From Clostridium sp. CAG:417 (GTDB lineage Bacteria; Bacillota_I; Bacilli_A; RF39; UBA660): a DNA stretch of 64,000 nt. Shown here piece after piece: positions 7,119 to 63,373 of this stretch. A program made the position numbers and the translations under genes. Each line of letters starts with the position of its first letter. The stretch's first letter is position 1. Under the pieces are notes generated by a model. The model made no database searches, was not told where the DNA came from, and worked only from the letters and a program-made list of their open reading frames with translations. Location: assembly GCA_000432835.1 (NCBI GenBank), contig FR890371.1, positions 62,915 to 126,914 on the forward strand, given 5' to 3'.

Positions 7119-7685
7119 ATGTATGATTATATGAATGGTTTAATAACAGATGTTAGACCAGATGGAATAGTTTTAGAGGTTAATAATATTGGATATTTTA
7201 TAAATGTATCCAATCCATATACTTTTGAAATTAATAAAATGAGTAGAGTATACTTATATCAACAAGTAAAAGAAGATGAGCTTAATTTATTTGGCTTTAA
7301 AAAGAAAGAAGAAAAAGAACTTTTTCTTAAATTAATTAATGTTAAGGGACTTGGATGTAAGATGGCTTTACCAATTTTAGCTACGGGATCTATAAATGGA
7401 ATAATGGAAGCAATAGAAAGAGAAAATATTGCTTATTTGAAAAAGTTTCCAAAGATTGGTGATAAATTAGCAAGACAGATGATACTTGATTTGAAGGGTA
7501 AAATTGGGAGTGTACATACTTTATTTGATGATAATAGTATTAATTATACTAGTAATGAATTACACGATGTTTTGATTGGATTAGGATATAAAGATAAAGA
7601 GATAAAAAATGTAGTATCTAAGGTTGATAAGAGTTTAACTATTGAGAATCAGGTAAAAGAGGCTTTAAAACTGTTATTAAAATAG
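7119..7685 (+). CDS. ruvA: Holliday junction branch-migration protein RuvA
   Basis: RuvA N-terminal OB domain, HhH motifs (LINVKGLG.K.A..IL) and a C-terminal domain. Immediately upstream of ruvB. Confidence 0.9.
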   Translation: MYDYMNGLITDVRPDGIVLEVNNIGYFINVSNPYTFEINKMSRVYLYQQVKEDELNLFGFKKKEEKELFLKLINVKGLGCKMALPILATGSINGIMEAIERENIAYLKKFPKIGDKLARQMILDLKGKIGSVHTLFDDNSINYTSNELHDVLIGLGYKDKEIKNVVSKVDKSLTIENQVKEALKLLLK

Positions 7686-13172: not shown

Positions 13173-13895
13173 ATGAAGTCAACAGATTTAATTATTAATG
13201 TAAATCCTAAATCAATATTTAGTGAATCAATAAAAACAATTCGTACAAATTTAGCTTTTTCAGCAATTGGGAATGAAATGAAAGTATTACTAGCAACATC
13301 ACCAGCAGCTGGGGATGGAAAAAGTTTTATTTCGGCTAACTTGGCAGTAGCATATGCTCAAGAGGGCAAGAAAGTACTAATGATAGATTGTGATTTACGT
13401 AGAGGTAGACAACATGAAATATTTGAAGTAATGAATTTAACTAGTGGGGGGTATTCTAACTTAATATTAAATTATAAAGAAGATGTGAATTTAGGTAAAT
13501 ATATAATGAAAACATCAAATGCAAATGTTGATTTATTACCTACTGGTCCAACTCCACCTAATCCAATAGAGTTATTAGCATCAGAAAATAATCAAAAGTT
13601 ATTAAATGAGTTAAGAAAACTGTATGATATAATTATATTAGATTGTCCACCAGTTATAGGATTAAGTGATACTATGATTATGACAAAATTTAGTGATGCT
13701 AATATAATAGTTGTTTCAAATAAAAAAACTAAGATAGAAAGTTTAGATAGGGCAAAAAAAATATTTGCTCAAGCAAATGCTAAAATTACAGGGGTTGTTA
13801 TTAATAAAGCTTCAGTAAAGGGGAGCAGTTATTATAGTTATTACTCAGATGAATATTATAGAGATACAGATAGTAAAAAGAAGAGAAAAAGATAA
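13173..13895 (+). CDS. BY-kinase (CpsD/YwqD family tyrosine-protein kinase)
   Basis: Walker A (SPAAGDGKSFISANLA), Walker A' (LMIDCDLRR), Walker B (IILDCPPV) and a C-terminal tyrosine cluster (SSYYSYYSDEYYRD). Confidence 0.88.
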   Translation: MKSTDLIINVNPKSIFSESIKTIRTNLAFSAIGNEMKVLLATSPAAGDGKSFISANLAVAYAQEGKKVLMIDCDLRRGRQHEIFEVMNLTSGGYSNLILNYKEDVNLGKYIMKTSNANVDLLPTGPTPPNPIELLASENNQKLLNELRKLYDIIILDCPPVIGLSDTMIMTKFSDANIIVVSNKKTKIESLDRAKKIFAQANAKITGVVINKASVKGSSYYSYYSDEYYRDTDSKKKRKR

Positions 13896-47788: not shown

Positions 47789-49525
47789 ATGAATGGACAG
47801 ACTGTTAGTAATTTAATTAGAAGTAAAACTGATATAGTAGATATTATAGGAGAAAGAATACCTTTAGTAAAAAAAGGAAAGAACTTTTTTGGAATTTGTC
47901 CGTTTCATGATGATACTAATCCTTCAATGTCTGTTTCTAGAGAAAAACAAATATATACTTGTTTTACTTGTCACGCTACGGGAAATGTTTTTAAGTTTTT
48001 AATGGATTATGAAAAAATGAGTTTTCCTGAGGCTTTAAAGTATTTGGGGGATAGAGTAGGAGTAGATACAAATAGTGTAAGGCTAAAAAAAGTAAATAAT
48101 AATAATGATAAATATTATGAAATGTATGACTTTGCAACTAAATATTATCAAAATAATATTTTATCTCCAGCTGGTAGTATGGCTAGAACTTATCTTTCGA
48201 AAAGAGGAATAGATAAAGATATCATTAAAAAATTTGAAATAGGTCTTTCTCTTCCTAATAATGCTGATTTAACAGAATTACTTTTGAAGAAGAAGTATGA
48301 TATAGTTGATCTTAATAAAGCAGGGCTTACTAATAGTAATTACGATGTGTATAAAGATAGAATTATGTTTCCCCTTTTTGATATAAATGGAAAAGTAGTA
48401 GGATTTTCAGGAAGAATATATAAAGATAGCCAAGATAATAAGTATTTGAATACAAAAGAGACTCCTATATTTGTTAAGGGAGAACAACTATATAATTATC
48501 ATATTGCTAAAGAGAAAGCTAGAATTTTAAAATATGTAATTATTATGGAAGGGTTTATGGATGTTATTAGAGCTAGTACTATTGGGTATGAAAATGTAAT
48601 AGCTTTAATGGGAACAGCTCTTACTCATGAACAAATGAAATTAATAAAGAGACTTTCTAATAACATTATATTGTGCTTAGATGGAGATAATCCAGGAAAA
48701 GCTGCGGCCTATAAATTAGGAGAAGAATTTTTAAAAGAAAAAATAGAAGTAAAAGTCGTTACCTTACCTAATAATGATGATCCAGATAGTTTTATTTTAA
48801 AAGAAGGAAAAGAAAAGTTTGCAAGATATATAGAAGAAGCAGAAAATTATAATGATTATAAAATTAGAGTAATGCGTGATAATGTTAATTTTCAAAGTGA
48901 TATAGAAAAAGCTAATTATATTAATAACGTTTTAAAAGAATTAACAGAAGTAAATGATGAAATAAGAATAGAAATTATTTTAAAAAAGCTTGCAAAAGAG
49001 TTCAATTTGGGGTATAATACGTTGGAAAAAAAGTTTTCTAACATTAAAAATAACAAACCTCAAGAAGAGATTAAATTTGTGCCAAAAAATACATCGAAAA
49101 GAAAAGATAAATATAGACAAGCCATAGAACAGGTAATATATTATATGCTTACTAATGAATGGGTAATTAGTGAAGTCGATAAAGAAAGACTCTTATTACC
49201 AGATGATAAAATTAGAATACTAGTACAAGAAATAATATATTATTATAAAACATATGGGGCAGTTTCAATTGCTGATTTTTATACATATTTACAAGATAAA
49301 CAAGAATTATTAGAGACTTTTAATAGTATTTTAAATAGCAATTATAATGATGAAGTTAGTAAGGAAGTTTTATATTTATATTTTGATGTTATTAGGGAAA
49401 ATGTAAAGAATAAAGAGATTAAGAGGTTGGAAGAAAAATTAGTCAAAGAAATAGATCCACTAGAACAAGCTAAGTTGGCTGATATGATTAGAAAGTTACG
49501 AATAGGAGAAAGTAATAATGGTTGA
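47789..49525 (+). CDS. dnaG: DNA primase
   Basis: Zinc-binding domain ([14 protein letters not shown]....CFTCH), TOPRIM (EGFMDV, DGDNPG). Start chosen at the ATG after GGAGA. Confidence 0.92.
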
Positions 49526-50612
49526 AGAAATAAAAACAATGGATGAGAGAAAAAATAAGTTAATCAATTTAGGTAAGAAGCAGGGATATATTACTTATGA
49601 ACAACTTGCTGATGAGTTAAAAGGATTAGATATTGATAGTGATGTTTTAGATGACCTTTATAATTCCTTGGTTGAAGTGGGTATTGAAATAGTAGCAGAA
49701 GATGGTAGCAGTGATGGTGATGATGGTAGTGATATTACTCAAGATATATCAGTTGAAGAGTTAACTTTATCAAAAGATGTTAAAATCAATGACCCTGTTA
49801 GAATGTATTTAAAAGAAATTGGTCGTATTAACTTACTTACATCAGATGAGGAGTTTGAATATGCTAGAAGGGCTATTGATGGAGATGAAGAAGCAAAGAA
49901 AATGCTTGCTGAATCAAATTTAAGATTAGTTGTTTCTATTGCTAAACGTTATGTAGGACGTGGTATGTTATTTCTTGATCTTATTCAAGAGGGAAATATT
50001 GGACTTATGAAGGCAGTAGATAAGTTTGATCCAACTAAAGGATATAAGTTTTCAACTTACGCTACTTGGTGGATAAGACAAGCTATAACTCGTGCTATTG
50101 CAGATCAAGCAAGAACTATCAGAGTTCCTGTTCATATGGTTGAAACAATCAATAAATTATCTCGTGTTCAAAGACAATTAACACAAGAGTTAAATCGTGA
50201 ACCTACAGATGAAGAAATCGCTAAAAAATTAGATATTCCAGTAGAAAAAGTAAGAGAAGTATATAAAATAAGTCAAGATCCTGTATCATTAGAAACACCA
50301 ATTGGTGAGGAAGAAGATTCACATCTTGGAGATTTCTTGCCAGATGAGAGAACAATGGGACCAGAAGAATTTACAACGCAAGAAATGTTAAAAGAAGAGT
50401 TAGATGGTGTCTTACTTACCTTGACTGATCGTGAAGAAAAAGTTCTTCGCCTTCGTTTTGGACTTGATGACGGTCAGTGTAGAACACTAGAAGAAGTAGG
50501 CCAAATCTTTGGAGTTACTAGAGAACGTATTCGTCAAATTGAAGCTAAGGCTTTAAGAAAATTAAGACATCCATCACGTTCAAGAAAATTAAAGGATTTC
50601 ATGACTGACTAA
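49518..50612 (+). CDS. rpoD: RNA polymerase sigma factor RpoD/SigA
   Basis: Regions 1.2-4 ([50 protein letters not shown]). Overlaps dnaG by 8 nt. Confidence 0.95.
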
Positions 50613-51400: not shown

Positions 51401-54034
51401 ATGAAATACGTTTATTTATTTAGTGAAGGTAATAAAAATATGAGGGAAATTCTAGGTGGTAAGGGTGCAAACCTTGCCGAAATGACTTCTCTAGGATTGC
51501 CAGTGCCACAAGGTTTTACGGTATCAACTGATGCTTGCCTTAGCTACTATAATAATGGAGAAAAGATAATACCAGAAATTGAGACAGAAATTTTTTCTAA
51601 ATTAGAAGAATTAGAAAAAATTACAGGTAAAAAGTTTGGAGATCTTTCTAATCCACTTTTAGTATCTGTTAGAAGCGGAGCAAGAGTTTCAATGCCTGGA
51701 ATGATGGACACTGTTTTGAATTTAGGAATGAATGATGCTATATGTGATAATTTAGAAAAAACTTTGGATAATCCAAGATTTGCTTTAGATAGTTATCGCA
51801 GATTAATTCAAATGTATAGTGATGTTGTTATGGGCTTTCCTAAGAGTAGTTTTGAAGGAGTTTTTGATAAATTTAAGGAAGATAAGGGCATAACCCTTGA
51901 TACTGAACTTTCAAATGATGATTTAAAAGAAATTATTAGACTTTATAAGAATGAATATTTAAAATTAGCAGGAGATAATTTTCCTAGTGATCCAAGGGTT
52001 CAATTGTTAGAGGCAGTTAAGGCTGTTTTTAGAAGTTGGAATACAGAAAGGGCAATTACTTATCGTAGATTAAATGATATTCCTTCTGATTGGGGAACAG
52101 CAGTTAATGTTCAACAAATGGTTTATGGAAATAGAGACAAAAATTCTGGTACTGGTGTTTGTTTTACAAGGAATCCGGCAACAGGGGACAAAAAGTTGTT
52201 TGGCGAATATCTAATGAATGCTCAAGGAGAAGATGTAGTTGCTGGTATTAGAACACCACAGGATATAAGTACATTAAAAGATGTAATGCCAGAGTGTTAT
52301 GAACAATTTCAAAATATTTGTAATGTGCTTGAAAATCACTATCATGATATGCAAGATATGGAATTTACTATTGAAGATGGTAAACTTTATATGTTACAAA
52401 CTAGAAATGGTAAAAGAACTGCAAAAGCAGCAATTAAGATTGCAGTTGATTTAGTTCATGAAGGACAAATTAGTATAAATGAAGCTTTGATGATGGTTGA
52501 TGCTAAAGACCTTGATCAGTTGTTACATCCTGTTTTTAATGAAGATGATTTAAAAAATAAAGAGGTTATTGCGACTGGTCTTGCGGCATCTCCTGGAGCA
52601 GCTACTGGTAAATTGTATTTTAGTGCGGAAGATGTGTTAAATGCTCATAAGGCAGGGGAAAAAGATATTATTTTAGCGCGTGAAGAAACTTCTCCTGAAG
52701 ATATAGAAGGTATGAATGTAGCACATGGTATTTTAACTGTTAGAGGTGGTATGACATCTCATGCAGCTGTTGTTGCTCGTGGTATGGGAACTACTTGTGT
52801 AAGTGGATGTAGTAGTTTAATTGTTGATAGTAGTAATAAAACTTTACAAACGAGTGATGGTAGAGTTTATCATGAAGGAGACTATTTAAGTCTTGATGGT
52901 ACTAGTGGTAGGGTTTATAGCGGAAAAGTAGAGTTACTTGATGCTAAAATTAGTGGTGAATTTGAAGAGTTTATGAACTGGGCTGATAGCGTTAGAAAGC
53001 TTGAAGTAAGAGCTAATGCAGATAATCCTAGAGATGCGAGAGTAGCTCATAATTTTGGAGCTCAAGGTATAGGACTTTGTCGTACTGAGCATATGTTCTT
53101 TAGTGAAGAGAGAATCTTTAACTTTAGACGTATGATAATTGCGACGACTGAAGAGCAAAGAAAAGAAGCTCTTAGTAAAATTTTACCTTATCAAAGAGAG
53201 GACTTTGAAGGGTTATTTTCTGAGATGAATAATTTACCTGTTATCATTCGTTTCCTTGATCCACCACTTCATGAATTTTTACCACATACGGATAGTGAAA
53301 TGGAAGAATTAGCTAATAGTATGGGAGTAGCGTTTGATGTAATTAAAAATAAAGTTGAGAGTTTAAAGGAATTTAATCCAATGATGGGACACAGAGGATG
53401 TAGACTTGATGTTACTTATCCTGAGATTGCTAGAATGCAAACAAGAGCTGTTATTGAGGCCGCTATTAATGTTACTTTACGAGGATTCAAAGTTATTCCT
53501 GAAATTATGATTCCGCTTATTGGAGATATGAATGAGCTTAAATATGTCAAAAAATTAATTACTGATGAAGCTTCTAAGGTATTTGAAGAAAACAGGATGA
53601 GGATTGATTATAAAGTAGGAACAATGATAGAAATTCCTAGAGCAACACTTATTGCTGATGAGATTGCCAGTGAAGCTGAGTTCTTTAGTTTTGGTACTAA
53701 TGACTTAACTCAACTTACTTATGGTTTCTCTAGAGATGATGCTTCTAAATTCTTGAAGGATTATTATGATAAAAAGATATTCCTACATGATCCTTTCCAA
53801 TCTATAGATGAAGAGGGAGTTGGAAAGTTGGTTGATATTTCTGTTAGAAAATCAAGGACAGTTCGTAGAGACATTGAACTTGGTATTTGTGGAGAACATG
53901 GTGGAGATCCTAAATCTATCGATTTCTGTCATAGGGTAGGACTTAATTATGTTTCTTGTTCTCCTTATAGAGTTCCAGTTGCACGTTTAGCTGCTGCGCA
54001 AGCTGCGATTAGAAATAGTATTGATGTAATATAG
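51401..54034 (+). CDS. ppdK: Pyruvate, phosphate dikinase
   Basis: ATP-grasp N-domain (GGKGANLAEM), central phospho-His domain (GGMTSHAAVVARG) and PEP-utilising C-domain (RTEHMF, GTNDLTQ). The last 12 codons lie in a direct repeat; see the repeat features. Confidence 0.95.
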   Translation: MKYVYLFSEGNKNMREILGGKGANLAEMTSLGLPVPQGFTVSTDACLSYYNNGEKIIPEIETEIFSKLEELEKITGKKFGDLSNPLLVSVRSGARVSMPGMMDTVLNLGMNDAICDNLEKTLDNPRFALDSYRRLIQMYSDVVMGFPKSSFEGVFDKFKEDKGITLDTELSNDDLKEIIRLYKNEYLKLAGDNFPSDPRVQLLEAVKAVFRSWNTERAITYRRLNDIPSDWGTAVNVQQMVYGNRDKNSGTGVCFTRNPATGDKKLFGEYLMNAQGEDVVAGIRTPQDISTLKDVMPECYEQFQNICNVLENHYHDMQDMEFTIEDGKLYMLQTRNGKRTAKAAIKIAVDLVHEGQISINEALMMVDAKDLDQLLHPVFNEDDLKNKEVIATGLAASPGAATGKLYFSAEDVLNAHKAGEKDIILAREETSPEDIEGMNVAHGILTVRGGMTSHAAVVARGMGTTCVSGCSSLIVDSSNKTLQTSDGRVYHEGDYLSLDGTSGRVYSGKVELLDAKISGEFEEFMNWADSVRKLEVRANADNPRDARVAHNFGAQGIGLCRTEHMFFSEERIFNFRRMIIATTEEQRKEALSKILPYQREDFEGLFSEMNNLPVIIRFLDPPLHEFLPHTDSEMEELANSMGVAFDVIKNKVESLKEFNPMMGHRGCRLDVTYPEIARMQTRAVIEAAINVTLRGFKVIPEIMIPLIGDMNELKYVKKLITDEASKVFEENRMRIDYKVGTMIEIPRATLIADEIASEAEFFSFGTNDLTQLTYGFSRDDASKFLKDYYDKKIFLHDPFQSIDEEGVGKLVDISVRKSRTVRRDIELGICGEHGGDPKSIDFCHRVGLNYVSCSPYRVPVARLAAAQAAIRNSIDVI

Positions 54035-54046
54035 AGTAAAAGTAGA
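53999..54046 (+). repeat. Direct repeat copy 1 (48 bp, 47/48 identical to 63326..63373), spanning the last 12 codons and stop of ppdK
   Basis: caaGctgcgattagaaatagtattgatgtaatatagagtaaaagtaga occurs twice. Candidate attL-like junction. Confidence 0.85.
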
Positions 54047-54353: not shown

Positions 54354-54489
54354 GATGATGTATCAGATAAACTTGGTTTGTTTGGTTATTGTAAAAGAAG
54401 AATAATAGCAAGATATGAAAAAGAAGATAGAATCCCAAAAGATGAAAGATTAATATAAATAGCAAATATTTTAAATGTAAGTTTTAATT
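54354..54489 (+). pseudogene. Fragment of an XRE-family HTH regulator, missing helix 1 and the start codon and carrying an internal stop
   Basis: In-frame translation ...ISDKLGLFGYCKRRIIARYEKEDRIPKDERLI*IANILNVSFN matches the C-terminal half of Cro/C1-type HTH domains (IskwE.G...P....L..iA.il.VS.d). Confidence 0.4.
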
Positions 54490-54909: not shown

Positions 54910-55038
54910 ATTGGTCGTATTAACTTACTTACATTAGATGAGGAGTTTGAATACTCTAGAAGAACTATCAATAGAGATGAAGAAGCAAAGGGAATGCTTG
55001 CTGAATCAAATTTAAGATTAGTTGTTTCTATTGCTAAA
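54910..55038 (+). pseudogene. 129-bp partial duplicate of rpoD (nt 49818..49946, sigma region 1.2/2.1), about 92% identical, with no start codon
   Basis: 119/129 identical positions by manual alignment. The encoded peptide [43 protein letters not shown] matches the host [43 protein letters not shown]. The two sequences diverge immediately after. Confidence 0.8.
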
Positions 55039-55464
55039 CATAATACGAGAATAGATTATATTGGACATATTGCTGATACTCTTGGAGTATCTTTAGAACA
55101 ATTATTTGCAGAAATATTAAGAAGTTTCGTTTAGAAAAATATAATAAGTTTAATAAGAAAAACTTAAATACATCTATTAATCCATATTCTACTGAGAATA
55201 TTTCTGCATTTTTAGATTATAATCACAATTTTTATAGGAAATTTGAAAGTGATAATGAGATGATACTTTTAGAAAAACTAGTTAAATTATCTATTATTTT
55301 AGATAAAAAATTGAATGATTTTATTAGATAACTAATTGTTAAAAAAGCTTTGACTTTCCAGGAAAAAAATGGTAAGATATGCCTCAAAAAGAGGAGTATC
55401 ATTAATAAATTTAAAATTACAAAAATATTCTTTTTTACATTTTAAATGAAAAGGAGGAAATAAT

Positions 55465-56109
55465 GTGTTTGAAACGGAGGTTAGATTTTATTTTAATAAA
55501 AATGAATCTACAAAAATTATATCTTATTTAAAAAATATAGATTTGCTTTCTTTTGATGGTAGATTTTATGAGGTAACTCAACAATTTGATCATCCAGAAA
55601 TTTCTAAGTCTTTTTATTCATTGCAAGTTGATGGCAGATTTAGAGTTAGATTGTCAAAAGGTGAATTGTTTAGTAAGTTAAAAGTATCATGGAAACAGCG
55701 TTTAAAAAAAGATAGAATTGATAATAAAATTCATAGGGAAAGGGAAGTTGAAATTAATTTAAATCCAAATGAGTATGATAATTTAATGTATATATTGAAT
55801 GAAGTTATTGATATGAAACTTGTAGAGAGTTATGAAAGATATAGGAGTGCTTTTTCTAATAAAGAAGTAGAAATAGTTGTGGATGAGTATCCATTTGCTA
55901 CAGCTATTGAGATTGAAAGCAAAACTGATGACTCTATATCATTAAATTTGTGGATAGACAGATTGGGTTTAAAATTAGAGGATGCTTATAGTTTATCTTG
56001 GGATGATAAATATAATGAATTATGTAAAGAACAAGGGAAAACAGCAACTAAGTTTGTTACATTTGAATCTGATATGCCAGAGTTAAAAAATTGTATTTTT
56101 GGAGAATAA
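55465..56109 (+). CDS. CYTH-like triphosphate tunnel metalloenzyme (class IV adenylyl cyclase/triphosphatase fold)
   Basis: N-terminal ExExR (FETEVRF), an R-rich strand (GRFRVRLSKGE), REREVEINL, and a C-terminal ATAIEIESK acidic strand, matching the CYTH motif pattern. GGAGG RBS. Confidence 0.5.
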   Translation: MFETEVRFYFNKNESTKIISYLKNIDLLSFDGRFYEVTQQFDHPEISKSFYSLQVDGRFRVRLSKGELFSKLKVSWKQRLKKDRIDNKIHREREVEINLNPNEYDNLMYILNEVIDMKLVESYERYRSAFSNKEVEIVVDEYPFATAIEIESKTDDSISLNLWIDRLGLKLEDAYSLSWDDKYNELCKEQGKTATKFVTFESDMPELKNCIFGE

Positions 56110-56110
56110 A

Positions 56111-56980
56111 ATGGAAAGTATAAAGAAAATTGAAAATGGTAATCTTAATGATGTATATAAATTAGTTCTAAATAATAAAAAGTATATTTTAAGAGTGACA
56201 AAATTTAATAATGATTGTGAGATAAATACATTGCTAATTTTAAAAAAATATAATTTAAATGTGCCAAATCTGTTAGCTCATTTTAGTGTTTATAATAAAA
56301 ATGTAATGTTATTAGATTATATTGAAGGGAGTAATCCTCTGAAAATTGATACTAAATTTATTACTGAACTTTTAAAACAGTTAAAAAAACTTCATAATAT
56401 TCCATATGAACATTTGGAAGAAAAATCAATAAATACAATAGAAAATTTTGAAAGATTGAGTGAATATTATGTTGTAAGCAAAGAATCAAATTTTTTAAAG
56501 CAAAAAATTCATTTAATTAATTCTATTTTGGAAGATGTTAGAGATATACCTTTTGATAAAATACCAAAATGCATAGTACATTCTGACATAAAAAAAGAGA
56601 ATGTGCTAGTAAATAATAATATTGTTTACATAATTGATTTTGGAAATAGTTATATAGGAAATAGGCTAATAGATTTAGTTAGAATAATTATGTGGTTTTT
56701 TTTGAAAGAAAATGATTTTAATATTGACGAAATAGAAAACAGTTTTAAAGTATATTTTGAAAATAATCATCTTATTGATTTAGAATATAATAATCTTAGT
56801 AAAATAATAAAATTTTGTGTTATTTATAATTTAATTAAAGATGTTTATTTATTTGAAAAAGGATTCTTATCTGAAAATTATGTTGTTAAAAATGATACAA
56901 AATGGTTAAATGCATTGGAAAATGAACAATTATTAGAGAAAGTAAAGGAGGCTTTAAATAATGCTAGTAGATATTCATAA
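56111..56980 (+). CDS. APH/choline-kinase-like small-molecule phosphotransferase (protein-kinase-like fold)
   Basis: Gly-rich loop region (GNLNDVYKL), catalytic VHSDIKKENVL (HxDxxxxN) and IIDFGNS (DFG-like). Confidence 0.6.
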   Translation: MESIKKIENGNLNDVYKLVLNNKKYILRVTKFNNDCEINTLLILKKYNLNVPNLLAHFSVYNKNVMLLDYIEGSNPLKIDTKFITELLKQLKKLHNIPYEHLEEKSINTIENFERLSEYYVVSKESNFLKQKIHLINSILEDVRDIPFDKIPKCIVHSDIKKENVLVNNNIVYIIDFGNSYIGNRLIDLVRIIMWFFLKENDFNIDEIENSFKVYFENNHLIDLEYNNLSKIIKFCVIYNLIKDVYLFEKGFLSENYVVKNDTKWLNALENEQLLEKVKEALNNASRYS

Positions 56981-57752
56981 AAATAAAGATTTAAGGAATA
57001 TAGAGGTTAATAATATAGGAATTTGTGATTATAAATTGCCAATAATATTTAAAAATAAGAGCAATATTTTTCCTACTATTGCAACTATTACTTCTACAGT
57101 AGTTTTAGATAGGAACCTAAAAGGCGCTCACTTAAGTAGAATTTCTGAGGTTATTAATGATTCATTAATAAACAAAAACATTTCATTGGGTGATATTAAT
57201 GATATAACTAAAGAAGTTGCAGAAAGATCAGAAACTAAAGGTGCTAATTTAATATTATCATTCGATTTAATTAACAAAAGATTAACACCTGTATCTAAAA
57301 AGGATTCTTATTTATCTTCTAAAATTACAATAATTAGTGATATTTTTGATAAAAGTGTTAGCAATAAATTGATTGTAGAGACTGTTGGTACAATGCTTTG
57401 TCCATGTTCAAAAGCAATTTCTAAGTATGGTGCACATAATCAAATATGTAATTTAAAAGTTTCGTTAACAGGTAATATTGAAAGTATAGATGTTGAAAAA
57501 ATTATTGATATTATGGAACAACAATTTAGTTCACCTGTTTATAGTACTGTTAAAAGAGAAGATGAAAAATACATTACTGAAAAGGCTTATGAAAATCCTA
57601 AGTTTTCAGAAGACTTGATTAGAGATACTATAATAGCTATTCATAATTATTATTCTGCTTGCGATATAAGGGTAGAATTAGTCAACAATGAATCAATTCA
57701 TCAACATAATGTTTATGCAATGGGAGAACAAAATGCTGATTTTAACTCATAA
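56961..57752 (+). CDS. folE2: GTP cyclohydrolase FolE2/MptA family (GCYH-IB)
   Basis: KGAHLSRISE (the ..H.SRF motif), CPCSKAIS...GAHNQ and C-terminal NESIHQHNVYA (ESIHNHSAYA-like), diagnostic of FolE2/MptA. AAGGAGG RBS. Confidence 0.7.
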   Translation: MLVDIHKNKDLRNIEVNNIGICDYKLPIIFKNKSNIFPTIATITSTVVLDRNLKGAHLSRISEVINDSLINKNISLGDINDITKEVAERSETKGANLILSFDLINKRLTPVSKKDSYLSSKITIISDIFDKSVSNKLIVETVGTMLCPCSKAISKYGAHNQICNLKVSLTGNIESIDVEKIIDIMEQQFSSPVYSTVKREDEKYITEKAYENPKFSEDLIRDTIIAIHNYYSACDIRVELVNNESIHQHNVYAMGEQNADFNS

Positions 57753-58581
57753 AGAATTGTATGATAGATATTTAATCAATGTTGGTGATGACTCTAAAAA
57801 GGAAATTAAATCTATATTAACGGCTATGGAAAAACATGGCTATTCTAGTTTGATAAAACAAAAAATTAACATGAATGAAGAAACATTTTATTATTTATAT
57901 TCTTTGTTAATAAAATTAAAAGAAATATTTGATACAAGATATAACAATAGAAATGATTTAGAAATCTTTTTTGATTATGTATTACAAGGTATCGATAGTA
58001 TTCCAATTAACTTTTATGCTATTTTTTGTCCTGGTTATAATGATGATGGATACAAAGATAGGCTAGGTAAAACTACTACTACTAAAATACAAAAACTTTT
58101 TCAAATGAAACAATTATTAGATAAGGAGAATGTTTTACATAATATTCATTGTTTATATGCAGATATTTTTTTAGAGAATTGTGATGAACTTAAAAATCCA
58201 AATTGGGAAAAGGAATTAGAGGTTAATAAAAATCTATTTAAGGAATATGCCATTAAATATTTAGAATGTGCAGATATTGGTTTTTTATCAAGTTATTTTT
58301 CTGATAGTAAATATCAGAGAGGCTTTGTTGATTCTAGTATTATTAATGGTAATAATTATGAGTCATTTAGAAAATATAATAATAATTTTTATATGAAAAT
58401 GGGCTGGGATGATGCTAAAACAAAAGAACGTAATGATAAGTTATATACAATTTATAATATAATTGCTGAATATATTATCAATACAAAATCAAATGGTGTT
58501 TATTTACCGATGGAGAATATGTATGCACGAACTAAAGTGTTTACTAAGAAAAAAGTGAGTTCAATGTATTTTAAATTGTAG
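57733..58581 (+). CDS. Hypothetical protein (283 aa), unique to this operon
   Basis: Start at the ATG after GGGAGAA, overlapping folE2 by 20 nt (translationally coupled). No recognisable motif. Confidence 0.4.
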   Translation: MLILTHKELYDRYLINVGDDSKKEIKSILTAMEKHGYSSLIKQKINMNEETFYYLYSLLIKLKEIFDTRYNNRNDLEIFFDYVLQGIDSIPINFYAIFCPGYNDDGYKDRLGKTTTTKIQKLFQMKQLLDKENVLHNIHCLYADIFLENCDELKNPNWEKELEVNKNLFKEYAIKYLECADIGFLSSYFSDSKYQRGFVDSSIINGNNYESFRKYNNNFYMKMGWDDAKTKERNDKLYTIYNIIAEYIINTKSNGVYLPMENMYARTKVFTKKKVSSMYFKL

Positions 58582-58591
58582 AGGAGTAAAT

Positions 58592-60604
58592 ATGAATTAT
58601 AAAGAAAAAGGTAATCTGTTTTGTAAAGAAATAAATCAATTATTGGCAAATAAAAATGAATACTATGCTTTGGTTACTGGAGGTGGATTTGCTTATGATT
58701 CTGTAAAGTATTCGGATACTATACAGGGTGATTATGATTTTATGATAGTATATAAGGATGTTGAGCAATTAAATTCTTTAATAGAAGAATTAGAAAAAAT
58801 TCCATTTGATTTTGAAAAGAAATATTTAGTTTCTGATTTACATTTATTAAAAAGTAAAGTAATAGATATCATAAGATTAAGTGGTAAATATCGTGGTACC
58901 AAGAGTACTATTAACTTAGTAAACATAGAGTTAATTAAAAGAATAGCAAATTTGGAAACAAGAATGTCTTTAAAGAAAATTGCTCATAATAGAAATACTG
59001 GTCTGTTTTTTGCATATGGTTCTGATAATAGCAGAATAATTGTAAACTTTTTATCACCATCATTTGTTAGTAATGATGGTGAAGATCACTATATTCATTT
59101 AGATTTTTCTAATATTATTGTAGATAATAATATTTATTTTGGTATATTAGCAGATGCTATTTTAAAGGGTTTTAATAGTAATTATGATAATGTAGGCTTT
59201 AAGAAAGTACGTCAAAAGATGATAAAAAATATTAATAACTTTTTTAAAAATAATAAAATCGATAATAGTAATTATCTAAACTTGTATGCTAACAATATAT
59301 ATTTTCCAGAAAGTTTAAAAAGACAATTACTTGAAGAATTCAATAAATATGGTAAAAATGTTTTTGCAGAAAAAAATACTATATCTAATACAAAATATCC
59401 AATTATTTTTGCTGTTGATAATCCAATTAATAGAAAAATGAATCCATTTAATTTTATAAATAATAAAAGTTACAGATGTTCTTTTGATGATTATATTAAT
59501 GAAATGCAAAAAAATGAATATGATAGACAATATTTGCTAGACGCATTAGCTAAATTGTTTGGATATGTTGCTTTTTCGAATAGTAAATTAGAGGGTGATA
59601 ATTATATAGAAAATATCATATCTAAATTCAGTGTATATGGTAATAATGATTTGTATTTTGAAGGAATTGAAAAATATTCTGTTAATACTATTTTTGGTTC
59701 ATTTATTAATGATTTAAAAGTAAATAGATTTAAATATAACCCTATTTTATATAAAAATTATTTGCTAATGTTGTTAAGTTTTTTGTCATTTTATAATAAT
59801 AAGAATATTTTTGATATGTCCTTAAAATATGAAGTTAATGTTCAAAAATTGGTTAAACCTGAATTAGATAATACTAAAATGAATAGTAAAGTAATATTGA
59901 AGTTGTTTAATTTTGATGATATAGGTATGTATCATAATTATACATCAAAGGTTATGCCTGGATATACACAAACTGAATGTGATTTTTTAGAAAAAGTATT
60001 TATAGATAAAAAAGAGCCTGTTTTAGATATTATGTGTGGATATGGAAGAATAGCTAATGAATTAGTTAAAAGAAATTATAAAAATGTGTATGGCGTTGAT
60101 TTTTCTGGTTATTCTTTTTTGAATGTAGATAAGAATTTTATTTTTTCTAAAGATGATTTCTTTCATTATCGACCAGGTATATTATTTAAATATTTATATA
60201 GCTTATATAATTGTTATGAAAATAAGGAATATTTGAGAAAAGTAATCAATAAAATGGCAGAATTGTCTGCTGATAATGCTCTTGCTATTTTAGATGTTTT
60301 TAACAAAGAATGGCGAGATAAAATAGATCCTGAATTTTATAAATTGCTTTTTGATAGTTCTCCTGTAAAATTAGAAATTAGTAGGCATTATGATGATACA
60401 ACAGGCGTTGAAACAACTAAATATTTAAAAACAATGTCTGATAATGAACAAGAAGAATATAGTTTTTCTCAAAAGTTTTTTACACAGACTGAGATAGAGG
60501 AGTCTATAGATTATAAAAAATGGAATATAGATTTTTTTACATCTGCTGAGGTTGGATCAAGAAATAATAATCAGAAAAGAATTTTGGTTTTAAGGAGGCG
60601 ATAA
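58592..60604 (+). CDS. Two-domain protein: N-terminal nucleotidyltransferase (pol-beta-like) fold plus C-terminal class I SAM-dependent methyltransferase
   Basis: N-terminal LVTGGGFAYDSVKYSDTIQGDYDFMIV fits hG[GS]x(9-14)DhDh. C-terminal VLDIMCGYGRIANEL...VYGVDFS is SAM-MTase motif I plus the post-I acidic residue. Confidence 0.5.
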   Translation: MNYKEKGNLFCKEINQLLANKNEYYALVTGGGFAYDSVKYSDTIQGDYDFMIVYKDVEQLNSLIEELEKIPFDFEKKYLVSDLHLLKSKVIDIIRLSGKYRGTKSTINLVNIELIKRIANLETRMSLKKIAHNRNTGLFFAYGSDNSRIIVNFLSPSFVSNDGEDHYIHLDFSNIIVDNNIYFGILADAILKGFNSNYDNVGFKKVRQKMIKNINNFFKNNKIDNSNYLNLYANNIYFPESLKRQLLEEFNKYGKNVFAEKNTISNTKYPIIFAVDNPINRKMNPFNFINNKSYRCSFDDYINEMQKNEYDRQYLLDALAKLFGYVAFSNSKLEGDNYIENIISKFSVYGNNDLYFEGIEKYSVNTIFGSFINDLKVNRFKYNPILYKNYLLMLLSFLSFYNNKNIFDMSLKYEVNVQKLVKPELDNTKMNSKVILKLFNFDDIGMYHNYTSKVMPGYTQTECDFLEKVFIDKKEPVLDIMCGYGRIANELVKRNYKNVYGVDFSGYSFLNVDKNFIFSKDDFFHYRPGILFKYLYSLYNCYENKEYLRKVINKMAELSADNALAILDVFNKEWRDKIDPEFYKLLFDSSPVKLEISRHYDDTTGVETTKYLKTMSDNEQEEYSFSQKFFTQTEIEESIDYKKWNIDFFTSAEVGSRNNNQKRILVLRRR

Positions 60605-60606
60605 AT

Positions 60607-61143
60607 ATGTCAATTATAGCAATTGAAGGAAGTAACTGTAGTGGAAAGTCAACATTGATAGATTATTTAGTTAAATATTATAATTTTAAATCTTCAAAAT
60701 CAGTACCTGAGTGGTTTAGACCATATATACCTTTTGCAAGAGAATTACAACCTCAAATACAACGAAAAATATATGAGATAGGACATATTGCAGCGTACTA
60801 TGATGCACTAAAAGAAAAAAAATGTACTATTTTTGACCGTTGTTACTTTTCAACATATATTCGATTATCATATCAAGAAAGTAAAACTGTAAATGAGTGT
60901 GTAGATCAAATTGCTTCTTTTCACTATAAGCCTGATTTAATAATTGTTCTAACTGTTCCTAAAGAAATTATGGAGCAGAGGTTGGTAGAAAGGAATAAAC
61001 AGTTTAATCAGGATTTTTTTGAATATGAAAATTCTGTTTATTTACAATTATCACTCAAATATGATAACATTATATTAGTTGATAATAGTAAAAATATAAA
61101 ATTTTGTACGAATGAAATATTGAGAAAAATAAAAGGGAGATAA
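60607..61143 (+). CDS. Deoxynucleoside-kinase/thymidylate-kinase-like P-loop nucleoside (nucleotide) kinase
   Basis: IAIEGSNCSGKST P-loop in the dNK context (I.IEG..G.GKST), FDRCYFS (DR/ERS motif), and a lid/base-binding region. Confidence 0.6.
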   Translation: MSIIAIEGSNCSGKSTLIDYLVKYYNFKSSKSVPEWFRPYIPFARELQPQIQRKIYEIGHIAAYYDALKEKKCTIFDRCYFSTYIRLSYQESKTVNECVDQIASFHYKPDLIIVLTVPKEIMEQRLVERNKQFNQDFFEYENSVYLQLSLKYDNIILVDNSKNIKFCTNEILRKIKGR

Positions 61144-61146
61144 GTT

Positions 61147-62085
61147 ATGAATGATGTAAGAGAGCAATTGAAATATGTAGTGGAAAATAGTGTTTATGTA
61201 AAAATTAATTATACTCAATTAGATAATTTTATAAATAGTTTAGGAAAGCCAAATTATCGACATTGGTATAATTTTACTTCTTTAAATTTAAACGAAAAGG
61301 AAAAAATTATTTTAGCCTTTATAATAGAAAGTTTAAATTTTTGTTTTTGGCAAAAGCCAAAATTTAAAATTGAATATAAAGGTAATATTATAAAAGGGTC
61401 TGAGGCTTTATTTTATTCAATTATAAGAGAAGTAGAATCTAATAAAGATTTTTTAGATATAGAATTTTTAAATAAATTAACAAAAGATGATTTTGAAAAA
61501 ATATTTTATTCGCCTGATAGTATAATACCTTTATTCGATTTGAGATATGATCTTTTTAAAGATACTGTTAAAACAATGTATAATAAAGGACAGAGTTTTT
61601 TTGATGAATTGTTTAATAAGAAATCAGATGTTGATTTATTAAAGTATATTGTGTCAGAATTTAAGTATTTTGATGATAGTAGTATATATAAAGGTAAAAG
61701 AATAAAGTTTAACAAACGTGCTACTTTACTTGTTAATGACTTATATTATATGTCATCTACAATACATAATAATTTAAAAAATGTTGATAATTTAACAGGT
61801 TGTGCTGATTATGGTATACCAAGGACTTTAAGAACGTATGGGATTTTAGAATATAATGAGGAATTATCTAACATAATTGATAGTGAGATAGAGTTAAAGC
61901 ATGATAGTAATATGGAAATTGAAATTAGAGCTAATATGCTTTATGTATTAGAATTAATTAGAGAAAAATTAGAAAGTAAAGGTATTAAAATTAATTCTGT
62001 AGAATTAGATAATATTATTTGGCAGATGGGAACGAAGAAGAAAAATGTAAATCCATATCATCATACAATTACAATATTTTATTAG
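61147..62085 (+). CDS. qng1: Qng1/DUF2419-family protein (queuosine 5'-phosphate N-glycosylase/hydrolase homologue)
   Basis: Block-by-block similarity to human QNG1 (C9orf64): SLNFCFW vs TLNFSFW, KGKRIKFNKRATLLVNDL vs EGKRVSFYKRAQILVADT, GCADYGIPRTL vs FADYRLPQVL, EIEIRANMLYVLELIRE vs EVEIRGCSLWCVELIRD, C-terminal HHTITIFY vs HRIRCIYY. Confidence 0.65.
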   Translation: MNDVREQLKYVVENSVYVKINYTQLDNFINSLGKPNYRHWYNFTSLNLNEKEKIILAFIIESLNFCFWQKPKFKIEYKGNIIKGSEALFYSIIREVESNKDFLDIEFLNKLTKDDFEKIFYSPDSIIPLFDLRYDLFKDTVKTMYNKGQSFFDELFNKKSDVDLLKYIVSEFKYFDDSSIYKGKRIKFNKRATLLVNDLYYMSSTIHNNLKNVDNLTGCADYGIPRTLRTYGILEYNEELSNIIDSEIELKHDSNMEIEIRANMLYVLELIREKLESKGIKINSVELDNIIWQMGTKKKNVNPYHHTITIFY

Positions 62086-62423
62086 ATTCTATTATAAACT
62101 AAATTTTAGACAAGTTAGTAACCCACTATGATATTGACGGAGCCAATAATGAATTTGGGTAAAGGGAGTTTCCCTTTGAGGACCCACTTAGAGTAACAAA
62201 TTACAAAGTGTTATAACACAATAATGTTGTATAAAAATAACCATGTTGCTAAAAAGTGAAATGTGCCTCATACAGTAGACATCAATAAAAACCTATTTAA
62301 TAAAAATGTGGTAGAATACACTTCTGAAGGTGGTGTATTCTTATGATTTAAAAAGGAAAAAAGCATATTAAACATATTGATGAATTTAAAAAAATTAGAA
62401 ATGAACTTAAATATATTAACAAA

Positions 62424-62987
62424 ATGTGTGAAAAGTATAATGATAATATAAATTCAATAAATCACTATACTAAACCTGCAAATCTAGGAGATGGGTATGA
62501 TATTATAAGACCTATTCTATGGGATTATATAATTCAAATGGCGGTTGCAAATTCAGAAACACACAATATAATCCAGTTCTTAAGAGGTAAGGCTGAACTA
62601 TATGAGTCACAATTTTCTCAAAATGCATATTTTCACAGTATAGAAAGTTTTATTAACACTTTAAAAAATAGTAATAATTGTATTGTCGTTAATTTAGTTT
62701 CTAATTTAGAAACAAGAAAAAATAGAAATAGAATAAGATTTGAAAATGGTGGACATTATGTTTCTGATGATACTATGGACAAAATATATTCAAAAGACAT
62801 ATTTGAATATACAAAAACTGGCGAAAATTTTGGATATTTATTAGTTGCTGGTCAAACTATTCCAGTATATACTATTGTTAATGATAAAACACTTAACGAG
62901 ATTGCATTAAATAATTTTTTAGAATATAATGTCAATAGGGTAATAAAATATTACAATGATTTTAAGGAAGGAAAAACATGGAATTAA
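62424..62987 (+). CDS. Hypothetical protein, possibly the C-terminal part of a P-loop kinase-like fold. No ATG-initiated upstream extension.
   Basis: KNRNRIRF..GGHYVSDD is reminiscent of the lid region of adenylate/zeta-type kinases. Preceded by a TGgTAGAAT extended -10 and an AGAATACAC...GTGTATTCT hairpin in the 5' leader. Confidence 0.3.
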   Translation: MCEKYNDNINSINHYTKPANLGDGYDIIRPILWDYIIQMAVANSETHNIIQFLRGKAELYESQFSQNAYFHSIESFINTLKNSNNCIVVNLVSNLETRKNRNRIRFENGGHYVSDDTMDKIYSKDIFEYTKTGENFGYLLVAGQTIPVYTIVNDKTLNEIALNNFLEYNVNRVIKYYNDFKEGKTWN

Positions 62988-63277
62988 AAAAGATTCAAAA
63001 AGATGTTTGGCAGAATAAGTTAAACAAAGGATTTAATACAACAGATGTAAATAAAGAGTTTTGTTTATTATATGGAGAAGTTTCTGAAGCGTATGATGCT
63101 TGGAAAAAGAAAAAAGATGATTTGAATGAAGAATTAGCAGACATTGCTATTTACTTAATGGGTCTATCTGAAATGTTGGGTTTTGATTTAGCAGATGAAA
63201 TAGAGAAGAAAGTTTCTAAAAATGAAAAACGAGTATATAAAAATATAGATGGGGTTAATGTAAGAATAAGTGATTAA
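62978..63277 (+). CDS. MazG-like nucleoside triphosphate pyrophosphohydrolase (small all-alpha NTP-PPase)
   Basis: LYGEVSEAYDAWKK....EELADIAIYLMGLSEMLGFDLADEIEKK..KNEKRVY is the EExxE...ELADxxxY MazG/HisE-type signature. Confidence 0.6.
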   Translation: MELKKIQKDVWQNKLNKGFNTTDVNKEFCLLYGEVSEAYDAWKKKKDDLNEELADIAIYLMGLSEMLGFDLADEIEKKVSKNEKRVYKNIDGVNVRISD

Positions 63278-63325
63278 TATTTAGATTTAAATTTGTATTA
63301 AGATATTCCGAACTAAATCTTGGTA

Positions 63326-63373
63326 CAAACTGCGATTAGAAATAGTATTGATGTAATATAGAGTAAAAGTAGA
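63326..63373 (+). repeat. Direct repeat copy 2 (displaced native ppdK 3' end), followed by a terminator-like hairpin TTGTTTCTT-gaaaaa-AAGAAACAA
   Basis: 47/48 identity with 53999..54046. Still encodes ...TAIRNSIDVI* in frame. Candidate attR-like junction. Confidence 0.85.

Follow-up and report, generated by a model that had tools for sequence, protein, structure and literature searches.

The question raised by this locus is what might be made, or modified, by an unfamiliar two-module protein encoded in a 64,000-nucleotide (nt) stretch of Clostridium sp. CAG:417 DNA (contig FR890371.1, positions 62,915 to 126,914; the whole stretch is hereafter called the window, and coordinates are those of the window unless another locus is named). 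An open reading frame (ORF) at 58592–60604 on the forward strand of this DNA, which is low in G+C (23–35%), specifies a 670-amino-acid (aa) product with an ATG start, in which an N-terminal module of 440 aa (residues 1–440; N-module) with a nucleotidyltransferase (NTase) fold precedes a class I S-adenosylmethionine (SAM) methyltransferase. The fusion of the two is real and conserved, and its N-module defines a family, new and rare, within the Pol-beta nucleotidyltransferase superfamily, to which it belongs by fold and motifs only. We rate as roughly even the chances that the protein is a bifunctional nucleoside monophosphate (NMP)-transferase/methyltransferase in an uncharacterised GTP-derived pathway.

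Architecture and conservation of the fusion protein

The gene and its parts were delimited as follows.

58592..60604, + strand: gene of the two-module protein (N-module and SAM methyltransferase), supported by the ORF, 45 full-length homologues of 662–687 aa and an AlphaFold model
58592..58951, + strand: Pol-beta-type nucleotidyltransferase core, aa 1–120, containing GGG30–32, D47xD49, E75 and D82
58952..59911, + strand: family-specific extension of the N-module, aa 121–440, drawn from the model and conserved columns, with no sequence match in Pfam or PDB
59912..60601, + strand: class I SAM-dependent methyltransferase domain, aa 441–670, with motif I VLDIMCGYGR at 60020–60049 and motif II VYGVDFS at 60086–60106

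Among 5.8 billion clustered proteins, 54 relatives were retrieved, approximately 45 of which were full length (662–687 aa, 34–94% identity, 99–100% query coverage). Since the full-length homologues all cover 99–100% of the protein, the fusion proposed in the original prediction is genuine and conserved rather than an artefact of assembly. In the full-length AlphaFold model (pLDDT 92.5), a pTM of 0.90 shows both modules packed into a single rigid body. The short motifs from which the fusion had been called were located at GGG (aa 30–32, 58679–58687), separated by 14 residues from DYD(F) (aa 47–50, 58730–58738), at VLDIMCGYGRIANEL (VLDIMCGYGR plus IANEL; aa 477–491, from 60020) and at VYGVDFS (aa 499–505, 60086–60106). 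A chance origin of these motifs is ruled out by their conservation across homologues: T29, G30, G31, G32, Y35, S37, K39, D47, D49, D82, D92, R95, K104 and D188 of the N-module, together with D479, G483, G485 and D503 of the methyltransferase and many further columns, were invariant in the 45-homologue alignment.

In the N-module, the NTase core takes up only ~120 residues, and its secondary structure (helix 3–21, strand 25–28, GGG, short helix, strand 48–54, helix 57–67, strand 72–74) matches the alpha-beta-alpha-beta-alpha-beta fold of the Pol-beta-like nucleotidyltransferase superfamily, with D47xD49 placed at the start of strand 48–54. The remainder, which includes the invariant residues G184 and D188, is specific to the family and consists of a beta-sheet block (aa 126–183) and a mostly helical part (aa 185–440). 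The original prediction spoke of a minimal pol-beta-type NTase motif; the NTase fold held up, while the module, 440 aa long around so small a core, is not a minimal NTase. Top Foldseek matches were Tam41 and SpoT (probability 1.0), with a best E-value of 7e-3 and none at or below 1e-3, so that kinship to these proteins is confined to the fold. The comparisons also took in poly(A) polymerases, CD-NTases, GrpB and minimal NTases.

Conservation was followed further in an extended set of 18 aligned N-module sequences with 13–35% identity to the window protein, including standalone relatives and relatives fused to an APH-type kinase (13–22%). The hG[GS] motif (T29-G30-G31-G32 in 45/45 full-length homologues) was retained, with G31 in 18/18 and G32 in 17/18 sequences (one S), and so was the [DE]h[DE]h motif (D47-Y-D49-F), both aspartates of which were invariant in 45/45 and 18/18. 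Across the extended set G31, Y35, D47, D49, G98, K104, G184, D188 and F238 were invariant; at G32, S37 and R95 conservation was almost complete. Candidate positions for a third carboxylate lie on strand 72–74, the next after the DxD strand (an acid at 73 in 17/18 of the extended set, or at 75 in 40/45 of the fused clade), at D82, which is D or E in every sequence, and at the invariant D188. This pattern of conservation is that of a working active site, the activity itself being predicted; therefore the N-module is not a degenerate domain stripped of its acidic residues, a finding that would have told against an NTase assignment.

An exhaustive profile HMM search of 1.84 billion representative proteins found only 44 N-module proteins, of three kinds: members of the fused family, standalone proteins 420–480 aa in length, and proteins in which an APH-type kinase domain (Pfam APH E-values from 1.4e-6 to 8.5e-3) comes after the N-module. 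Profile searches did not place the module in any described NTase sequence family (NTP_transf_2, Mmp37/Tam41, Adenyl_transf, RelA_SpoT and others). The window protein's N-module had no Pfam match even at E <= 10, and one of the 18 relatives gave a marginal match to Aminoglyc_resit (E 0.008). NCBIfam yielded no NTase-family match, its sole match being a chance-level one to an ATP synthase delta model (0.005, aa 195–253); PADLOC and PHROG yielded no match, and comparison of the profile with PDB sequences returned nothing relevant. The impression that the architecture resembles no characterised enzyme was thus well founded, in that the N-module corresponds to no model in Pfam, NCBIfam, PADLOC or PHROG and has no sequence relative in the PDB.

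The C-terminal domain is a genuine class I SAM methyltransferase, as had been proposed. It has a Rossmann-like methyltransferase fold; D479, G483 and G485 of motif I (V477-L-D-I-M-C-G-Y-G-R486) and D503 of motif II (VYGVDFS) are invariant; and in a PDB profile search the family profile matched the Pyrococcus SAM methyltransferase 1wzn at E=9.1e-9, with 16 further methyltransferase chains at or below 0.01. Single-sequence Pfam scores (Methyltransf_23, 21.3 bits; Methyltransf_25, 20.9 bits) were both under the 27-bit cut-off, and precomputed Pfam methyltransferase domains were present on several homologues. The closest structural neighbours were small-molecule and NDP-sugar (nucleoside diphosphate-sugar) methyltransferases such as DesVI, CcbJ, CypM and PsmD.

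A FolE2-centred operon and the two halves encoded apart

The fusion gene is the fifth of seven genes (55465–62085, intergenic spacing of −20 to +10 nt) that run from CYTH through the APH kinase, FolE2, a 282-aa protein, the fusion and a TMK-like kinase to a Qng1-like glycosidase, and are translationally coupled. Its six companions are listed below.

55465..56109, + strand: CYTH / triphosphate-tunnel-like protein with N-terminal ETEVR, an accessory first gene (weak Pfam CYTH match, E=0.0036)
56099..56980, + strand: APH-family (small-molecule) kinase (Pfam APH E=1.6e-19)
56961..57752, + strand: GTP cyclohydrolase IB (FolE2; Pfam GCHY-1 E=5e-64)
57733..58581, + strand: 'U282', a 282-aa protein of a family restricted to these cassettes, with no Pfam, NCBIfam or PDB match
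60607..61143, + strand: thymidylate-kinase-like (TMK-like) P-loop nucleotide kinase (Pfam Thymidylate_kin E=1.4e-14, dNK E=2e-7; PDB 2pbr E=4e-11)
61147..62085, + strand: Qng1/DUF2419-like nucleotide N-glycosidase (Pfam Q_salvage E=1.4e-54)

The fusion gene had been described as sitting between the GTP cyclohydrolase and the kinase/Qng1 pair. This was correct on the side of the TMK-like kinase; on the other side the U282 gene (57733–58581) intervenes, and the cyclohydrolase lies two genes upstream. Rfam matched one tRNA only across the whole window, so no riboswitch precedes the operon.

Assignment of FolE2 rests on a family-profile match and on its active site. The alignment to Neisseria gonorrhoeae FolE2 (3d2o, E=7.5e-49) showed identity at C147, C149, H159 and E201, which we take to be metal and catalytic residues, and the NCBIfam score of 189 was below the equivalog cut-off of 215. 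U282 was called mechanically as a 297-aa ORF (57688–58581), the first 15 codons of which overlap the 3′ end of FolE2; because homologues carry stop codons in the matching stretch (L009, L010, L012, L013), its probable true start was put at ATG 57733. None of the 65 homologues in the U282 family had a Pfam domain, and the family, in which the motifs IFCPxY and FLEN are invariant, is confined to the neighbourhood of FolE2. Its profile found no PDB sequence, and Pfam at E <= 10 gave scattered single matches across the family. The CYTH gene, which overlaps the APH kinase gene by 11 nt, was found in L003, L004, L007 and L008, and a clear CYTH gene is present in the distant cassettes L016/L017. The APH kinase was present in 13/14 loci carrying the cassette, the remaining one (L005) being a 3.6-kb contig that begins inside FolE2.

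The Qng1-like protein is a full-length family member that retains the counterparts of D231, K199, D207, N72, F75, Y232, D298, W302, Y323 and the C-terminal I-F-Y of StQng1, in which roles have been assigned to the catalytic Asp and Lys, to Asp298 and Trp302 at the guanine edge and to Phe75 and Tyr232 in ribose stacking, while Y93, W94 and W299 form an aromatic pocket for the cyclopentenediol substituent of queuine (PMC9881137). This pocket for the 7-substituent was altered in 7/7 cassette copies (Y93->S, W94->E/N, W299->N/S; as motifs, GYWA -> GS[EN]A and DW -> D[NS]), as were two phosphate contacts (K233->G, Q306->T/K/R). Because both the side-chain pocket and the phosphate contacts have changed, the substrate is probably a guanine-like nucleotide other than queuosine monophosphate. 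The kinase that makes the 5′-monophosphate substrate of Qng1 is unidentified (PMC9881137), and it is of interest in this respect that the TMK-like kinase gene lies directly before the Qng1-like gene, 3 nt upstream.

A search for standalone homologues of each half and for their genomic contexts, which the original prediction had suggested, found each half separately encoded beside FolE2. A standalone N-module lies in L018 (3964–10968), in a cluster of genes for Ldh_2, PEP_mutase, a methyltransferase, FolE2, NDK, the N-module, a 384-aa protein and NUDIX, and the 251-aa methyltransferase of this cluster is a specific homologue of the C-terminal domain of the window protein (hmmsearch E 3.4e-17). 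The Ldh_2 and PEP_mutase-family genes may point to a building block of the hydroxy-acid or phosphonate type, and next after the cluster comes a type IIG restriction-modification gene. In L019, FolE2 and an NDK-like protein accompany a standalone N-module, a 378-aa protein and NUDIX. N-modules fused to APH adjoin an NDK-like gene (L021), a NUDIX gene (L022) or EamA and HIT genes (L020), and such a fusion, read as a Rosetta stone, links the N-module to the kinase encoded separately in the window. Every N-module relative with a readable neighbourhood adjoined nucleotide-handling genes (FolE2, nucleotide kinases, NUDIX, APH or HIT).

Standalone methyltransferase homologues were 236–265 aa long with 33–45% identity. 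In a sister cassette (L023, 8001–12535, and L024), a methyltransferase is encoded with FolE2, a U282-family protein, a 524-aa GTP_cyclohydro2-domain protein and a 212-aa protein; the same cassette occurs in Fusibacter sp. JL216-2 (L015, 8391–14977), where an IS66 element interrupts the U282 gene. The sister operon thus combines GTP cyclohydrolase-type domains of two different sorts. The 524-aa protein, with a GTP-binding, pyrophosphate-releasing domain, fills the place of the N-module; hhalign detected no relationship between the two, nor between the U282 family and the 378-aa protein of the standalone-N-module cassettes. In L025 the methyltransferase gene directly precedes TMK-like and Qng1-like genes, and a minimal cassette lacking both halves (FolE2, CYTH, U282-like and ADK-like kinase) was found in environmental contigs. 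With standalone homologues of each half found beside FolE2, both are independently tied to it, and FolE2 is the hub of these gene sets.

Recurrence, hosts and mobility of the cassette

The gene order APH, FolE2, U282, fusion, TMK-like, (NUDIX), Qng1-like recurs in 14 fetched loci, of which the most divergent (L006 and L014) lack the Qng1 gene. The genes flanking the operon in the window (rpoD, trmK, ppdK) were shared by 0/14. Hosts were uncultured gut Bacilli, 'Tenericutes' and Erysipelotrichaceae-type metagenome-assembled genomes, and a cultured mouse-gut isolate (bacterium D16-56/D16-54), which holds a 37%-identical version. Positions 55103–62256 of the window share 96% DNA identity with both L007 and L008 over 7.2 kb, and the similarity ends sharply on both sides. 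Direct repeats lie further out.

53998..54046, + strand: left copy of a 48-nt direct repeat, equal to the 3′ end (last codons) of ppdK
63325..63373, + strand: right copy, with one mismatch, closing a ~9.3-kb island that bears the operon

The repeat resembles a target duplication of the att type at the 3′ end of ppdK. In L001 the six-gene cassette, and nothing more, lies between the copies of a 50-nt direct repeat (96% identity, 7195–7244 and 13745–13794) that includes a terminator-like hairpin. No integrase was present in the window island or in the repeat-flanked cassette of L001, and relatives were absent from IMG/VR, the INPHARED phages and the PLSDB plasmids.

Besides the operon, the ~9.3-kb low-GC island contains a 187-aa gene, a MazG-like gene, and sigma-70 and XRE-type scraps. 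The scraps lie between ppdK and the operon (54925–55134, also ~54400–54480): one closely matches region 2 of the genuine rpoD (49518–50612) and is joined to an XRE-HTH-like (helix-turn-helix) tail, and a second XRE-like scrap is present. A mobile element or prophage, now decayed, seems to have left them. At 62424–63277 the 187-aa gene overlaps that of a 99-aa MazG-like pyrophosphatase (PHROG pyrophosphatase E 2.5e-14), and neither had a counterpart in any fetched locus. The divergent fused versions at L006 26–1847 and L014 12576–13298 adjoin Peptidase_U32 genes, and in L006 also Methyltransf_3, a pairing that we take to resemble the trhP/trmR genes for 5-hydroxyuridine/5-methoxyuridine (ho5U/mo5U) in tRNA; the adjacency could be a common insertion site or a functional link.

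Proposed pathway, alternatives and known systems

The surroundings of the fusion favour a GTP-, pterin- or guanine-like nucleotide over an aminoglycoside as its substrate, and the operon most probably makes a new metabolite derived from GTP (pterin- or guanine-like). In the scheme we consider for a bifunctional enzyme, FolE2 would convert GTP to 7,8-dihydroneopterin triphosphate, from which CYTH (NUDIX in other versions) would remove phosphates, and U282 and the APH kinase would remodel and phosphorylate the intermediate, the kinase making a phosphomonoester. The N-module would use a nucleoside triphosphate (probably GTP or ATP), free pyrophosphate and move NMP onto a hydroxyl or phosphomonoester of the small-molecule intermediate, with chemistry of the Tam41 type (phosphatidate) or of the aminoglycoside nucleotidyltransferase (ANT) type (hydroxyls); the fused class I methyltransferase would then methylate the same molecule, and the TMK-like kinase and Qng1-like glycosidase would handle an accompanying guanine-like nucleotide. 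NMP transfer to a small molecule and its methylation are what we infer here, as we do each catalytic step, the order of the steps and the nature of the product. More tentatively still, and as a broader possibility that we lean somewhat against, FolE2, U282 and the N-module (or the GTP-cyclohydrolase-II-like protein of the sister cassette) may form a branch of GTP metabolism not known so far, building a methylated nucleotide-linked pterin or a 7-substituted guanine nucleotide that serves as cofactor, signal or weapon; the branch would be spread among gut Bacillota by small integrase-less islands, and the N-module would found a new class of nucleotidyltransferases.

Several observations weigh against the scheme. 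Activity, substrate and product are predicted for every member of the family, and the third catalytic carboxylate of the N-module has several candidates. Rel/SpoT pyrophosphokinases come close in score to true NMP transferases, and the N-module could thus transfer pyrophosphate instead. No recognisable pterin-branch enzyme (FolB, FolK, QueD, PTPS) was found in the operon with Pfam or NCBIfam to take up the FolE2 product. The cassettes come with nucleotide kinases of three kinds (TMK-, ADK- and NDK-like), and this recurrence of an NMP or NDP kinase hints that the intermediate may be a non-canonical (guanine) nucleotide and not a free pterin. The roles of U282, the TMK-like kinase and the Qng1-like glycosidase are not accounted for, and literature searches found no published description of the cassette or of its gene combination.

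All four alternative explanations were rated below that of a bifunctional enzyme in a GTP-derived pathway. The original prediction saw the protein as tailoring an aminoglycoside- or nucleoside-like compound; in its fuller form, the enzyme would tailor a natural product resembling an aminoglycoside, a lincosamide or a nucleoside antibiotic, or inactivate it, through methylation and O-nucleotidylation, with APH as a third modifying or resistance enzyme. We consider this improbable, as no sugar, aminocyclitol, non-ribosomal peptide synthetase, polyketide synthase or export genes were found in any of at least 14 loci, no match attained the curated score of any NCBIfam resistance model, there were no plasmid relatives, and the constant partners (FolE2, nucleotide kinases, NUDIX/CYTH and the Qng1-like glycosidase) all handle nucleotides. 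A substrate among nucleic acids seems unlikely, if a little less so: a CYTH triphosphatase, an NTase and a methyltransferase, with NUDIX/HIT acting in reverse, could make up a capping-like or end-modifying system, or the enzyme could serve a queuosine-related modification of guanine in tRNA or DNA. Poxvirus and African swine fever virus capping enzymes (vaccinia D1, pNP868R) differ from the fusion in domain order and in substrate (RNA 5′ end), and there is no sign of an RNA substrate here; the capping guanylyltransferase is a covalent-lysine enzyme of another fold.

We likewise hold it unlikely, to about the degree of a nucleic acid substrate, that the operon is a conflict or anti-phage island in which the fusion serves as tailoring enzyme, the island making a modified, toxic or chain-terminating guanine nucleotide or draining GTP. 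The mobility of the cassette, near-identical in L007/L008 between unrelated flanks and bracketed by 48–50-nt direct repeats in the window and L001, speaks for such a role, as do the MazG-like gene with phage-type relatives on the island, the neighbours seen elsewhere (MazEF, patatin, a transposase fragment, an MvaI/BcnI nuclease and the type IIG restriction-modification gene) and weak matches of the TMK-like kinase to PADLOC candidate models (PDC-M51B 4e-9, VakA 3.5e-8). Yet no other cassette protein matched PADLOC, no sensor- or effector-type domain is present, the phage, IMG/VR and plasmid collections hold no relatives, and the small-genome gut hosts make a salvage or cofactor function equally plausible. 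Finally, the N-module might be a non-catalytic, regulatory or scaffolding NTase-like domain, leaving the methyltransferase as sole enzyme. The lack of a sequence-level match to a characterised NTase and of an identified third carboxylate would fit this; we regard it as highly improbable, since G-G, DxD, R95, G98, K104, G184 and D188 are kept down to 13% identity, including in standalone proteins without a methyltransferase, a pattern expected of an active site and not of a scaffold.

Named pathways were also compared with the operon and rejected. A 7-deazaguanine (preQ0) cluster would call for QueC, QueD and QueE, and a folate cluster for FolB, FolK and FolP, none of which is present. A lic-type phosphocholine pathway (APH kinase, NTase and PMT-like methyltransferase) lacks a LicD-type transferase or membrane protein here and leaves the nucleotide genes unexplained. 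For Pnkp/Hen1-type RNA repair, Hen1 scored at E ~0.9.

GTP cyclohydrolase I usually feeds the folate, biopterin, methanopterin and 7-deazaguanine pathways. A FolE2 in a compact mobile operon with no known downstream enzyme, accompanied by a Qng1-like glycosidase with a rebuilt pocket, points to an undescribed GTP-derived metabolite of the gut microbiome, and the cultured isolate with its 37%-identical version makes the question testable.

Among the nearest known systems is the Tam41/Mmp37 CDP-diacylglycerol synthase (7ecd, 6ig2), from which the N-module differs in lacking detectable similarity of sequence, with no Pfam Mmp37 match and 15% identity in the structural alignment, in being ~170 residues longer, with its own beta-sheet block and helical region, and in its setting in a soluble nucleotide operon rather than in lipid synthesis. 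It lies outside the sequence families of ANT(4′)/KNTase (kanamycin nucleotidyltransferase) and LinB, is fused to a methyltransferase and has no antibiotic-related context genes. RelA/SpoT-homologue (RSH) enzymes transfer pyrophosphate, and to our knowledge the (p)ppGpp synthetase domain of these enzymes lacks the hG[GS]...DxD signature that is invariant in the N-module. The methyltransferase domain shares 11–19% identity with class I beta-lid small-molecule methyltransferases (PH1305 1wzn, 3d2l, DesVI/TylM1, CcbJ, CypM, YunM) and scores under the Pfam curated cut-offs; it forms a distinct family, restricted to these cassettes, the standalone members of which all adjoin FolE2 or the TMK/Qng1 pair. 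The neighbouring glycosidase has its catalytic residues in common with the queuosine-5′-monophosphate glycosidase Qng1 (DUF2419) and departs from it in the queuine pocket. Both folds of the fusion are old; it is the N-module family, the fusion architecture and the pathway that are undescribed.

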